A stretch of 49,784 bases of DNA, taken from IMG/VR virus record IMGVR_UViG_2879736954_000010, one strand, 5' to 3'. Position 1 is the stretch's first letter; each line of letters begins with the position of its first letter. Made by a program: the position numbers and the translations under genes. This stretch comes from a virus (taxonomy: Duplodnaviria; Heunggongvirae; Uroviricota; Caudoviricetes). The notes beneath the pieces were generated by a model. That model was given only the letters and a program-made list of their open reading frames with translations, was not told the origin of the DNA and ran no database searches. This document shows positions 1 to 49,784 of this stretch, piece by piece.

Positions 1-477
1 ATGAAACTCATCAGTAACGATCTGCGCGATGGCGATAAGTTGCCGCATCGTCATGTCTTTAACGGCATGGGTTACGATGGCGATAATATTTCACCGCATC
101 TGGCGTGGGATGATGTTCCTGCGGGAACGAAAAGTTTTGTTGTCACCTGCTACGACCCGGATGCGCCAACCGGCTCCGGCTGGTGGCACTGGGTAGTTGT
201 TAATTTACCCGCTGATACCCGCGTATTACCGCAAGGGTTTGGCTCTGGTCTGGTAGCAATGCCAGACGGCGTTTTGCAGACGCGTACCGATTTTGGTAAA
301 ACCGGATACGATGGCGCAGCGCCGCCGAAAGGCGAAACCCATCGCTACATTTTTACCGTTCACGCGCTGGATGTAGAGCGTATTGATGTCGATGAAGGAG
401 CCAGCGGCGCGATGGTCGGGTTTAACGTTCATTTCCACTCTCTGGCAAGCGCATCGATTACCGCGATGTTTAGTTAA
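1..477 (+). CDS. ybhB: PEBP/RKIP-family protein YbhB (158 aa, complete)
   Basis: Translation matches my recollection of E. coli YbhB (MKLISNDLRDGDKLPHRHVFNGMGYDGDNISPHLAWDDVP...); lies immediately beside a lambda att core, as expected for the bio-side flank of attB-lambda. Confidence 0.8.
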   Translation: MKLISNDLRDGDKLPHRHVFNGMGYDGDNISPHLAWDDVPAGTKSFVVTCYDPDAPTGSGWWHWVVVNLPADTRVLPQGFGSGLVAMPDGVLQTRTDFGKTGYDGAAPPKGETHRYIFTVHALDVERIDVDEGASGAMVGFNVHFHSLASASITAMFS

Positions 478-567
478 TCACTCTGCCAGATGGCGCAATG
501 CCATCTGGTATCACTTAAAGGTATTAAAAACAACTTTTTGTCTTTTTACCTTCCCGTTTCGCTCAAG

Positions 568-735
568 TTAGTATAAAAAAGCTGACCGAGAAACAGTAAA
601 AATCATTAATATCAATGCATTATAATACATTTAGCTTAAAAAATAGACTGCATAATACTGCAAAACACAACATATCCAGTCACTATGAATCAACCACTTA
701 GATGGTATTAGTGACCTGATACAGAGCATTAGCGC
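568..735. other. Lambda-type attachment site: 15-bp core at 568-582 (ttagtataaaaaagc, reverse complement of GCTTTTTTATACTAA) plus P-arm-like sequence 583-735 (attR, bio side)
   Basis: Exact 15-bp lambda O core read directly. The reverse complement of 583-735 closely resembles the lambda attP P-arm as I recall it (AGGTCACTAATACCATCTAAGT...GTGACTG...TGTTGTGTTTT...CAGTATTATG...). Confidence 0.7.
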
Positions 736-770
736 AAGGTGATTTTTTGTCCTCTTGCGCTAATTTTTTG

Positions 771-956
771 TCAACGCACTGGGTTAGCTGAATTTACAAC
801 CATGCTCAGTATCTCGATAAGCGCAGAGAAATGATGCTGTGGTGGGCAGACTACTGGCTTGATGAAAAGGTAGGGCGACCAACCGCGTTTTTTCAGTTCA
901 GTCAGCACATTGAGCCAGAACTTCACCCCTTCATTTTCGGCCAGCCACATCCCCAA
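771..956 (-). pseudogene. IS256/mutator-family transposase fragment (61-aa remnant)
   Basis: Translation contains AENEGVKFWLNVLTELKKRG, resembling the conserved EGAKFWLSVLNELKNRG block of mutator-family transposases; ORF far too short to be intact. Confidence 0.4.
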
Positions 957-984
957 CAGTTCTTCCTGTTCTTAACTATTTACA

Positions 985-1001
985 GGCGCGTTTTTTTAAA
1001 G
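985..1001 (+). promoter_or_regulatory. MxiE-box-like motif upstream of ipaH
   Basis: cgtttttttaaag at 989-1001 matches the 3' 13 positions of the MxiE box consensus (GTATCGTTTTTTTANAG) as I recall it; about 60 bp upstream of the ipaH ATG, with an AT-rich -10-like stretch (tatatt, ~1024-1029) between. Confidence 0.55.
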
Positions 1002-1059
1002 AATCCTCACTCCATTTGCACGAATATATTAATATATAAACAATGAGGATCAATAATAA

Positions 1060-46530: not shown

Positions 46531-46867
46531 CAACCATGAGCCAGCTAAAACATACTTCACCTCACATAATCACACATGTAACATACCTAAACGGCATGAG
46601 CTGATTTGTGATATGAGTCATTTGATGACAGCCTGGTTGTTATCGGTTTTGAACGTTTTTTGAAGCTATGATTGAAATGATTTATAGTGTTTTTGTTTTT
46701 CGTTTTTTCAATGAAACAAAAGCAATTTTTTACTATCTTTCGCGTTTCATTGGTTAACGCCTAAAATTTGTACTACAGGCTTGCAAGCCCCACCAAATCT
46801 AATCCCATCAGATCCCGAATAATCCAATGTTCTCCCGGTTTTTTCGTACTTCAAGTGAATCAATACA
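46531..46867 (-). other. Mu/D108-like left end (attL and operator region); terminus at 46867
   Basis: Reverse complement of 46830-46867 reads TGTATTGATTCACTTGAAGTACGAAAAAACCGGGAGA, the canonical Mu left-end sequence. Confidence 0.8.
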
Positions 46868-47209
46868 CTGGGGCAAACGCTAACCCGTTTCCGCCAGCGT
46901 AAACATATGCTGGAAAGTATTGATAGCGCCAGCCAGAAGCAAATTGATGAGATGTTTAATGCCTATGCTCGCGGTGAACCCAAAGACGAACTGCCGACCG
47001 GCATTGACCCCTTGACGCTAAACGCGGTGCGAAAACTGTTTAAAGAGCCTGGTGTGCAACATACGGCAGAAACGGTGGCGCAGGCACTGACCATCAGCCG
47101 CACCACTGCCAGGCGTTATCTTGAATATTGCGCCAGCCGCCATCTGATTATTGCTGAAATTGTTCACGGCAAAGTTGGCAGACCACAACGCATATACCAC
47201 AGTGGGTGA
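46868..47209 (+). pseudogene. dpiA: dpiA (citB) response regulator, 3' fragment only (5' part displaced by Mu-like insertion)
   Basis: C-terminal HTH region ...TISRTTARRYLEYCASRHLIIAEIVHGKVGRPQRIYHSG; convergent with dcuC as in E. coli. Confidence 0.65.
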
Positions 47210-47218
47210 CATGATAAA

Positions 47219-47241
47219 GCCGGAGGAAACTTGCCTCCGGC
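47219..47241. terminator. Bidirectional rho-independent terminator between convergent dpiA and dcuC
   Basis: Perfect stem gccggagg/cctccggc with 7-nt loop, flanked by T-rich (plus) and A-rich (minus) sequence. Confidence 0.5.
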
Positions 47242-47249
47242 ATTACTAT

Positions 47250-48635
47250 TTACTTGCCTGTGACCGCTGCTGCCGTTCCTGGCACCATCAGCTCTGTAGC
47301 AACGATAACAATCACTAGCCCAACAAGCACCGGCACCGAGGTGCGTTTTACGACTTCAAATGGTGAGATTTTCGCCATCCCGGCAACCGCAACGACTACG
47401 CCAGAAACGGGTGATAGGGTACGACCCAGGTTTGACGCCTGCAGCATCGGGATAGTCAAATACGCCGGGTTAATGCCGGAAGAGTGCGCCAGTTTCGGGA
47501 TCATCTCAACAAACGCATAAAACGGCGCATTGCCTGAACCGGTCGTGACTGCCGCCAGCATGGTCAGAATCACCAATACCAGCATCAGGATGATACTCGC
47601 CGAACCAAACGAGGTAGCGATAGAAATCAGACTTTGAATAAAGCCGATGGTGCTAAGCCCCTGAGCGAATACCCCAGCGGCAACCAGCAGCATCACCACG
47701 TTAGCAAACGCATCTGCCATCCCGCGATAAGCCACTTCCAGACCAGAGAAAACTTTCTGGGTATTAAAGCTGCGGAGGAACTCCAGAATGGAGGCAATCA
47801 GCATACAAATCACCAGAATAGTGATGATGTGTAATTGCGGACCCCATTTACCGTCAAAAATCAGTACACCGATGATCGGCGTGAACGGCAAAATGGCATA
47901 AAACGCGGGGGCAGTGGTGGTGATTTCACTGACATCTAACATTTCATGAGAGATGTGCTCTTTTTTATCCAGATAACGTTGCCAGAAGAAGTGGGCGATC
48001 GCCATGCCGATAATTGCAGCAATTGAGATAGGCAGCGTCGTTTTGAAGGCGAAGTCAATCAGCGACATTTCGGAAGCCTGCGCCGCCAGCACCACATCCC
48101 CTGAAGTCGGTGCGAGAATAATCGCCGCCGGGGAGGCACAAATGGCAGCTGCTGCGCCACGACTGATACCAACGTTTACCATCACCGGAAACAGGGTTGC
48201 CATCAGCAAAACCCCCAGACCGGTTGCGGAAGAGACGGCCAGTGACATCAGACAAGCAACAAAATAGGCGGCAATCATCAGCAGGTAAGGGGAGTTAATA
48301 TACTGCAATGGTTTTGACGCCAGCTTGACCACCATATCATTCGCGCCGATATGGGTCATGTAAGCGGCAAAGCCACACAGCATCATAATCATCATGCCGA
48401 GGTCGCCGCCGCGGCTCATTAGTAATATTTTAACGTATTCAACGATATCCGTGGCGCTGTAGCCTGTTGAAGCCTGGCTGGACGGTAACACTTTGTGCCC
48501 CATAATGGCACTGATAATCAGCAATAACAGGCCACCGACAAATAACACACCAGTGGCGGAATACCCTTTAATGATGTAGCGAGCCACACCCACAATAACC
48601 ACAACCCCAATAAGGAGTTCAATGAATGTCAGCAT
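47250..48635 (-). CDS. dcuC: Anaerobic C4-dicarboxylate transporter DcuC
   Basis: Polytopic membrane protein; start chosen at MLTFIELLIGVVVIVGVARYIIKG (461 aa), matching E. coli DcuC. Confidence 0.9.
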   Translation of the reverse strand: MLTFIELLIGVVVIVGVARYIIKGYSATGVLFVGGLLLLIISAIMGHKVLPSSQASTGYSATDIVEYVKILLMSRGGDLGMMIMMLCGFAAYMTHIGANDMVVKLASKPLQYINSPYLLMIAAYFVACLMSLAVSSATGLGVLLMATLFPVMVNVGISRGAAAAICASPAAIILAPTSGDVVLAAQASEMSLIDFAFKTTLPISIAAIIGMAIAHFFWQRYLDKKEHISHEMLDVSEITTTAPAFYAILPFTPIIGVLIFDGKWGPQLHIITILVICMLIASILEFLRSFNTQKVFSGLEVAYRGMADAFANVVMLLVAAGVFAQGLSTIGFIQSLISIATSFGSASIILMLVLVILTMLAAVTTGSGNAPFYAFVEMIPKLAHSSGINPAYLTIPMLQASNLGRTLSPVSGVVVAVAGMAKISPFEVVKRTSVPVLVGLVIVIVATELMVPGTAAAVTGK

Positions 48636-49226
48636 AATTTTTCCTGTCTCCAGGCCCAAAGTAAATAATAAAAACTTCCTAAAGCTTAAGGAAAAAATAT
48701 GCCCAATAAATTGGCGATGAATGCTGATTAAAATCAAGAAAAACTGCCATTAAGACATTGAAGTTGCTGTTTTTATACATAGATAACAAAACGCATATTT
48801 AGCGGTTGGCAATTATCACATAATAATGTGTGTAAATTGATGGTGGATTGATGCAAATTTGTTAATTGCAATGGTGTTAGCTGCGGCTGTGCGCTCAAAA
48901 AATAATCTAATATGAGCATGGGTTGACGATATATATTATATACTTCGTTAAGATGATTGTTGTATCTCGTTAAAAAAATAAAATAATTTTTCCTTGATTG
49001 CATTTTGTCATCAAAAAAGACTTGGTTTTTCTTTTTTGACTATTCCCATCGCAGAAAACGACGCATCATCTTTAATCGATGCGCGGAAATATTTAACTTG
49101 AACAAGCGGAAATAAATAGAGCAGCTATTCAGATTATTCTTTATGTTGGGTCTATTAAGGTTATGTTAATTGTAGCTTTGCTATGCTAGTAGTAGATTTT
49201 TGATAAATGTTTTATGGTCACAAATG

Positions 49227-49784
49227 AACGTGAGTAAATATGTCGCTATCTTTTCCTTTGTTTTTATTCAGTTAATCAGCGTTGGTAAAGTTTTTGCTAA
49301 CGCAGATGAGAGGATGACAACGTTTAGAGAAAATATTGCACAAACCTGGCAACAGCCTGAACATTATGATTTATATATTCCTGCCATCACCTGGCATGCA
49401 CGTTTCGCTTACGACAAAGAAAAAACCGATCGCTATAACGAGCGACCGTGGGGTGGCGGTTTTGGCCTGTCGCGTTGGGATGAAAAAGGAAACTGGCATG
49501 GCCTGTATGCCATGGCATTTAAGGACTCGTGGAACAAATGGGAACCGATTGCCGGATACGGATGGGAAAGTACCTGGCGACCGCTGGCGGATGAAAATTT
49601 TCATTTAGGTCTGGGATTCACCGCTGGCGTAACGGCACGCGATAACTGGAATTACATCCCTCTCCCGGTTCTACTGCCATTGGCCTCCGTGGGTTATGGC
49701 CCAGTGACTTTTCAGATGACCTACATTCCGGGTACCTACAACAATGGCAATGTGTACTTTGCCTGGATGCGCTTTCAGTTTTGA
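49227..49784 (+). CDS. pagP: Lipid A palmitoyltransferase PagP (outer membrane beta-barrel)
   Basis: [25 protein letters not shown] signal, ...[37 protein letters not shown]...YFAWMRFQF; complete, 186 aa. Confidence 0.9.

Follow-up and report, generated by a model that had tools for sequence, protein, structure and literature searches.

How two loci that lie far apart in Escherichia coli K-12 come to stand side by side is the question raised by the IMG/VR record IMGVR_UViG_2879736954_000010, whose whole stretch of 49,784 nucleotides was analysed and is referred to here as the window. It opens in ybhB, at the lambda attachment site (att-lambda) next to bio, and closes in the locus dpiA'-dcuC-pagP. 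Between them follow a lambda-like prophage (prophage A) interrupted by a first copy of the insertion sequence (IS) IS600 (IS600#1), the rest of prophage A, IS911, a second prophage fragment (prophage B) carrying IS2, a second IS600 copy (IS600#2) and the left end of a Mu-like phage (Table 1). An initial annotation, made from the letters alone, had placed the ends of the window in these two loci, about 150 kb apart in K-12, with IS600, IS911, IS2 and IS600 stitching three prophage pieces together. The K-12 matches agree on both ends, the spacing was measured as 153,127 bp, and the order and coordinates of the four elements hold. As argued below, the window is very probably one joint of an inversion-type rearrangement of the ~153-kb K-12 interval from dpiA to att-lambda, carried by a Shigella flexneri chromosome.

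The orientation of the two chromosomal ends is central to this reading. Window 1-582 corresponds to K-12 MG1655 807909->807328, position 1 being the start codon of ybhB, and the homology stops right after the att core. Window 46868-49784 corresponds to K-12 654201->657117 and holds the last 342 bp of dpiA followed by dcuC and pagP. The two ends run in opposite directions, ybhB descending and dpiA'-dcuC-pagP ascending in K-12 coordinates, and therefore at least one inversion is needed and a simple deletion is impossible. Beyond pagP, S. flexneri contigs continue with cspE, crcB, tatE, lipA, lipB and dacA in the K-12 order, and on the other side ybhB leads into bioA through uvrB. Since the genes beyond pagP and beyond ybhB are kept, the ~153-kb block was retained and flipped.

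The architecture is not peculiar to this record. Chromosome CP020342.1 is 100% identical to window 34004-49784 (15,781 bp), and other S. flexneri chromosomes are 99.9% identical, which bears out the earlier description of a Shigella-type arrangement. The joints were counted by exact 40-mers laid across each of them in the loci fetched for comparison (labelled L). The joints B-IS2, IS2-B, B-IS600#2, IS600#2-MuA' and Mu-dpiA' were exact in 21-27 loci: both IS2 joints in 24-27, including the non-flexneri-type L021 and L022, both IS600#2 joints in 23, and the Mu-dpiA joint in 21, two of which belong to species-representative genomes of GTDB. One such representative, S. flexneri SFBU1023, matches 6.4 kb of the window at 99.9% identity. 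The open reading frame (ORF) of the truncated MuA' junction occurred in 945 blocks of the assembly collection. The IS600#1 joints and the joint between the DnaC-like gene of prophage A and the left inverted repeat (IRL) of IS911 were found in 3-5 loci; both IS600#1 joints were exact in L018-L020 and the left one also in L023 and L024. Among 5,426 complete E. coli genomes, none had the Mu-dpiA or the IS911-B joint, none had any place covering both backbone ends, and in none were ybhB and pagP adjacent; natural adjacency of the two without an IS was a possibility that the initial annotation had raised together with misassembly. As the joints recur in independent complete genomes, the overall architecture is no misassembly, for all joints except the right end of IS911. 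It is a fixed feature of the S. flexneri lineage.

The elements at the joints were assigned to the IS3 family by TGA...TCA terminal inverted repeats (IS600, IS911) or IS2 ends, together with an orfA/orfB transposase. IS600, IS911 and IS2 all had these characters (NCBIfam transpos_IS3 and IS2 TnpB) and were 99.4-99.9% identical to annotated copies. A direct target duplication, of 3 bp for IS600 and IS911 and of 5 bp for IS2, was taken as the mark of simple insertion. The flanks, read directly, are as first described: IS2 has a clean 5-bp duplication and is a simple insertion, and neither IS600 copy nor IS911 has matching 3-bp flanks. Because they lack a target duplication, IS600#1, IS600#2 and IS911 are rearrangement joints, and each connects DNA that is not contiguous in intact relatives, in agreement with the deletion, inversion or recombination proposed for them at the outset. 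IS600#1 stands in place of 2,541 bp present in the prophage of enteroinvasive E. coli (EIEC) CFSAN029787, a loss that takes in Nu1 codons 1-67, cos, KilA-N, RelE/ParD and the 3' end of Rz. IS600#2, which differs from IS600#1 at 5 positions when the window is compared with itself, bridges the capsid region of prophage B and codon ~545 of Mu A. IS911 bridges the DnaC-like gene of phage A and an inverted Rz fragment of B.

Two more insertions can be read from the window. Phage A integrated normally at att-lambda, leaving attR and its tail genes by ybhB, and only this attR side of the integration lies inside the window. Mu genuinely inserted in dpiA, at codon 113/114, because its attL abuts dpiA codon 114. 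FDAARGOS_943 has the whole of phage A between ybhB and ybhC, and a B-type ipaH phage beside pgl; in the larger genomes L171 and L173, the same IpaH and tail-fibre remnant occupies att-lambda and ybhC has stayed on its far side. From such a chromosome, homologous recombination among dispersed IS600 and IS911 copies, with at least one exchange between inverted copies, probably flipped the block from the 3' part of dpiA to ybhC. The flip would have brought dpiA3'-dcuC-pagP beside the prophage on the ybhB side, and later IS-associated deletions would have removed the partners of the junctions.

Table 1. Features of the 49,784-nucleotide window and the matches on which they rest.
Feature	Coordinates	Strand	Evidence
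ybhB (kinase-inhibitor homologue; bio-proximal flank of att-lambda)	1..477	+	98.1% vs K-12 807909-807433; FDAARGOS_943 annotation
lambda att core (attR, B'OP), followed by lambda-like P arm 583-~720	568..582	.	end of K-12 homology after TTAGTATAAAAAAGC
ipaH (type III secretion system E3 ubiquitin ligase), moron between attR and tail-fibre genes	1060..2823	+	NCBIfam IpaH_Shig 563 bits, above cut-off
prophage A late region	3003..24864	-	tblastn of annotated L001/L004 proteins; 97-98% DNA identity to EIEC prophages
IS600#1	24865..26128	-	1264 bp; flanks GTT/CCC, no target duplication
prophage A lysis/early module	26129..31985	-	99.7% to CFSAN029787 L004 12408-18263
IS911	31986..33234	+	IRL abuts upstream region of DnaC-like gene; flanks GTC/GCC, no target duplication
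last 9 bp of IRL of a second, inverted IS911: GCCACTTCA	33235..33243	-	full inverted IS911 IRL abuts 33244 in L018/L148 and 14 other loci
prophage B fragment	33244..42742	+	99.3-99.5% to EIEC VL40 L005 12001-20197; Pfam
IS2, within prophage B terminase gene	35668..36998	+	5-bp duplication GCAAT at 35663-35667 / 36999-37003
IS600#2	42743..44006	-	1264 bp; flanks AAT/ATA, no target duplication
Mu-like left end	44007..46867	-	window 46867->44007 = Mu 1-2962; Pfam HTH_Tnp_Mu_1/2, DDE_2, Mu-transpos_C
dpiA 3' fragment, codons 114-226, made by Mu insertion	46868..47209	+	K-12 654201-654542
dcuC	47250..48635	-	NCBIfam PRK10654 889 bits
pagP	49224..49784	+	NCBIfam PRK11045 305 bits

Prophages A and B, which lie in opposite orientations in the window, are not strangers to each other. 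Window 26130-26305 and 33244-33419 form a perfect inverted repeat of 176 bp, where two nearly identical Rz genes overlap. Loci L021 and L022 carry window 31985->26130 and 33244->39851 as one continuous stretch, in which the 176 bp occur a single time, with the same IS2 and 99.6-99.9% identity. It follows from this continuity that the partner of this early and lysis module is a set of lambda-like structural genes in some genomes and of B-type ones in others. The initial annotation had described 33244-42742 as a second, unrelated prophage fragment; the coordinates stand, and the word unrelated does not, in view of the Rz stretch of 100% identity and of the continuity in these two loci. The 176-bp repeat brackets a 7.3-kb segment made up of the lysis/early module and IS911, which homologous exchange could flip; the segment was in one orientation in all S. 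flexneri loci seen.

The right-hand joint of IS911 is polymorphic. At the Rz breakpoint of the window, eighteen loci have an IS911 end, 16 of them with the full IRL and two (L150 and L157) with the right inverted repeat (IRR) and without the 9 bp that separate IS911 from Rz' in the window. That these 9 bp (33235-33243) might be native Rz sequence was rejected by direct comparison, although the VL40 alignment began at 33234. A look-up of the 89-amino-acid (aa) ORF spanning IS911, the 9 bp and Rz' gave no record. In CP182555.1 and similar genomes the region holds two IS911 copies, in the order DnaC, IS911b(+), ~5 kb, IS911a(-), Rz', and the ~5 kb between the pair contain a truncated Toprim gene, IS600 and a holin/tRNA remnant. 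The IS911 of the window corresponds to IS911b, with 0 differences to the DnaC-side copy of L018, L148, L152 and L020, and the B-side IS911a differs at position 1145. In the complete genomes L162 and L164, the same pair of breakpoints is bridged by a single IS911 that points the other way; these two and L165 were considered as window-type loci and rejected on account of this orientation. In L150 (CP097828.1), L156 (CP026792.1) and L157 (CP034060.1), the same B fragment is linked through IS911 to int'-attL-ybhC.

The likeliest immediate ancestor of the joint would be the form of CP182555.1, from which a deletion may have run from the exact IRR end of IS911b to a point 9 bp inside the IRL of IS911a. 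On the simplest reading, such a deletion fits an end-targeted event mediated by the transposase. The form of L162 and L164 could have arisen by deletion between the 8-bp TGAAGTGG tips of the two IS911 copies, and that of L150 and L157, with IRR directly on Rz', by slippage from the window form between two CCACTTCA repeats. We tentatively propose, from sequence comparison, that the joint is a natural footprint of end-targeted transposition and that an inverted IS911 pair in an S. flexneri ancestor was resolved independently in different lineages: from IRR to 9 bp inside IRL, by deletion between the 8-bp tips, or by exchange with a copy beside int'-ybhC. If this is true, the locus is a recurrent hotspot of IS911 rearrangement and a possible lineage marker.

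Other routes to the fusion have to be set against an inversion. That IS-mediated deletion of ~153 kb simply brought dpiA and att-lambda together might be thought from the adjacency of the loci and from the IS copies without target duplications between them, but the opposed directions of ybhB and dpiA'-pagP and the presence of cspE, lipA, lipB and dacA directly after pagP leave this practically no probability. A different scheme, in which excision or unequal exchange took place between direct IS600 copies (one in Mu A, one in a phage B residing at att-lambda by ybhC), followed by re-integration or re-sorting of the block through IS911 and loss of redundant DNA, rather than inversions alone, appears unlikely but deserves more weight. 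It draws on L156, in which B is in native orientation beside int'-attL-ybhC with just an IS911-associated internal deletion, and on the B-type phages at att-lambda in EIEC VL40, L021, L022 and L153. With B in its native orientation, the series B head -> IS600 -> MuA' -> dpiA3' would also be a circle-type joint. However, the 10-kb flanks covered in L150, L156 and L157 end before the place where Mu'-dpiA' would follow IS600, excision of 153 kb with essential genes is less likely than inversions, and under the alternative ancestral layout of FDAARGOS_943 (A at att-lambda, B by pgl) two inversions suffice. The inversion-type rearrangement is preferred on these grounds, and several points weigh against it. 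The reciprocal joints IS600-IRL/B-neck and IS600-IRR/MuA C-terminus had 0 matches in IMG/VR, where the control joint B-IS600 had 6 and where the native B-neck sequence kept its native left flank in 111 of 111 proviruses. No DpiA(1-113) fragment protein was present in a collection of 5.8 billion proteins, which returned dpiA frameshift alleles only. The linkage of the B fragment through IS911 to int'-attL-ybhC in L150, L156 and L157 belongs here as well: if B is native at att-lambda by ybhC, as L156 suggests, then the B-IS600-MuA' joint is of a circle or duplication type and needs more steps than two inversions. Finally, the number and order of the recombination events, and whether their partners survive, are inferred.

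Two further alternatives concern parts of the window. The segment 26129-31985 might belong to phage B, in which case IS600#1 would join two different phages; the unbroken run of this module into B in L021 and L022, with its single 176-bp copy and shared IS2, speaks for it. The assignment to A is nevertheless preferred and the alternative is doubtful, because, but for the missing 2,541 bp, the segment is collinear and co-oriented with the A terminase exactly as it is in CFSAN029787, because the IS600-Nu1' joint is common to L023 and L024, which have the same module across an IS600 cluster in the att-lambda prophage, and because the 176-bp overlap needs two Rz copies, that is, two phages with near-identical lysis genes. 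As for the right-hand joint of IS911, and this joint only, an assembly artefact through collapsed or mis-joined repeats is improbable. The case for it is that none of the 18 loci shares the window's series of IS911-IRR, GCCACTTCA and Rz', and that a wrong-way IS pasted onto a contig end with 9 bp of inverted repeat, in a strain with the single opposite IS911 of L162 and L164, would give the window sequence. Yet every other joint recurs exactly in many complete genomes assembled independently, a simple collapse of the inverted IS911 pair could not leave a whole element together with an inverted tip of 9 bp, the window IS911 shows no difference from the DnaC-side copy, which is what a real deletion would predict, and the L150/L157 form is derivable from that of the window by CCACTTCA slippage. 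Two points tell against the IS911 deletion in the preferred reading: the window form was found in 0 of the 18 comparable loci, and L164 carries the C allele at position 1145 although its IS911 meets B by IRL, which is not predicted by a reading based on which copy survived.

Additional observations were made on the IS elements. In L004 18264-18290, the native phage sequence beyond window position 31985, GTCACTGGATTTACC resembles the interior of the IS911 IRL, CACACTGAATTTGGCC; IS911 lies at that exact breakpoint nucleotide in both orientations across strains, and the site may be an inverted-repeat-like target. A group II intron reverse transcriptase (RVT_1, GIIM) is inserted inside IS911 at 762/763 in L019 (6164-7672), L151 (12281-13789) and L165. 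In L174 (E. coli VL7S7, an EIEC, 4977982-4979312), an independent IS911 occupies another point of Rz in a lambda-like prophage carrying ipaH (ipaHe). At the position of the window's IS600#1, between Rz and Nu1', L023 (15411-18860) and L024 have a palindrome-like arrangement of two inverted partial IS600 copies (IRR to ~1082) around another IS3-family element.

Prophage A consists of 583-24864 and 26129-31985, in the normal lambda orientation. Its identification as a lambda-like prophage in the initial annotation stands, and the end given there, 31965, is the start codon of the DnaC-like gene; the prophage runs to 31985. Its P arm, which resembles that of the lambda attP sequence, is followed by the gene that relatives annotate as ipaHa, and the exact IpaH protein adjoins ybhB in S. 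flexneri genomes. Between the two, at window 790-970, the annotation of relatives shows an incomplete hypothetical gene and 87 bp of a transposase gene, an IS remnant upstream of ipaH. By tblastn, 25 annotated late proteins follow in lambda order, with J, lom and the tail fibre beside attR: DUF4376, tail fibre, lom, J, I, K, L, M, H, T, G, V, U, Z, FII, FI, E, D, C, portal, W, TerL and Nu1, the last without aa 1-67. Compared with intact EIEC relatives, frameshifts are present in the tail fibre (~3930), the portal (~21490) and TerL (~22747). The lysis/early module contains Rz' (aa 1-134), lysozyme, a 209-aa ORF, a holin gene, four tRNAs (28267-28577), Q, NinH and the DnaB-like and DnaC-like genes. 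The tRNA cluster, on the minus strand between Q and the holin gene, reads Gly(tcc)-Thr(tgt)-Arg(tct)-Met(cat), and the CAT tRNA of the CFSAN029787 relative is annotated in RefSeq as tRNA-Ile.

IS911 cuts prophage A 20 bp upstream of the start codon of the DnaC-like gene. Because of this cut at 31985, the replication-initiator, immunity, xis and int genes and attL, which would lie beyond it, are all absent from the window, and the int/xis-attL end is present beside ybhC in FDAARGOS_943 and L173. Prophage A is a truncated remnant, not a complete att-lambda prophage. An integrase match in S. flexneri 8401 was considered as the missing int half and rejected, as it belongs to another prophage with a lambda-type int, at a secondary att site near a ygcP-like gene. 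This second prophage (L147, CP000266.1, 2751161-2772120) has identical DnaB-like and DnaC-like genes and an int cut by IS600; the core of its site matches only TTAGTATAAA, and it lies beside the ygcP-like gene and ETF genes near eno/pyrG.

The prophage B fragment begins with Rz' (aa ~73-155), a DedA-family gene and a 254-aa ORF, followed by the PBSX/Terminase_3 large terminase gene split by IS2, a DUF1073 portal, a Mu-F-like protein, DUF2213, a cement protein, a DUF2184 major capsid protein and a truncated ORF of the STY1053 family. The DedA/VTT-domain membrane protein gene (33578-34090, minus strand) is an insert on the opposite strand between the Rz and terminase genes of B, and its exact protein occurred in 5,113 blocks of the collection.

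The Mu-like remnant, which the initial annotation had called a Mu/D108-like left end, was placed exactly by comparison with Mu. It comprises attL at 46867, ner (45613-45867), a c-type repressor gene on the plus strand (46021-46530) and A as far as codon ~544. Identity is 91-98% over the attL end and the A gene, and the A gene is 97.8% identical to that of Mu. The segment 45458-46420, with c and ner, either lacks similarity to Mu, D108 and SfMu or reaches only ~67%, and looks like a distinct Mu-type immunity region. The window contains neither the right end of this phage nor the 5' part of dpiA. A 117-aa protein (P0134), considered as the missing 5' half of dpiA, proved to be a frameshifted dpiA in normal E. 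coli context. All three prophages are dead: A is without int, xis, immunity region and cos and has three frameshifts, B is an 8-kb fragment of head genes, and 2.9 kb remain of Mu.

S. flexneri genomes differ from one another by IS-mediated inversions, some of them associated with IS600 (Nie et al. 2006, PMC1550401), and Shigella shows exceptionally high rearrangement rates, with ipaH genes lying among remains of prophages and IS (Seferbekova et al. 2021, PMC8072062). The architecture of the window is already known in kind and is ordinary for Shigella. No paper dissecting this particular joint was found, in a comparison that lay outside the original Sf301 and 2457T genome papers, and the micro-anatomy of the IS911 joint and its polymorphism among strains are the sole details for which the literature searched gave no description. 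The locus has little weight beyond Shigella genomics. It is a clean example of IS600, IS911 and dead prophages reshuffling the S. flexneri chromosome, and it shows an ipaH effector gene arriving at att-lambda as cargo of a lambda-type phage. The invariant Mu-dpiA and B-IS600-MuA joints, which the 5,426 complete E. coli genomes lack, could mark the S. flexneri lineage and the polymorphic IS911 joint its sub-lineages; the latter is also a warning that repeat joints in assemblies need care.

Among known systems, the lambda prophage at the gal-bio attB shares with prophage A the same 15-bp core, the lambda-like P arm, the orientation with J beside bio and the gene order Nu1-A-W-B-C-D-E...J-lom-tail fibre-b region-attR. 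Prophage A differs from lambda in the ipaH of its b region, in its DnaB/DnaC-like early region, its different Q and its tRNA cluster, in the absence of int, xis, immunity region and cos, and in its three frameshifted late genes. The Mu remnant is like Mu, D108 and SfMu in its terminal attL, its c-ner-A order and its insertion within a host gene, and differs from them in being reduced to 2.9 kb and in a c/ner segment foreign to all three. In plasmid assays of the Chandler laboratory, IS911 is reported to insert beside sequences resembling its own ends, a close parallel to the IS911 joint. The likeness lies in the fusion of one copy, at its exact IRR end, to a point 9 bp within the IRL of another copy in inverted orientation, whereas the window offers a chromosomal footprint with a ~6-kb deletion, whose mechanism we infer from sequence only. 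Finally, the published S. flexneri chromosomes (Sf301, 2457T, Sf8401) have the same kinds of ipaH prophage remnants, hundreds of IS and IS-bounded inversions, and the right half of the window is identical in sequence to complete genomes.

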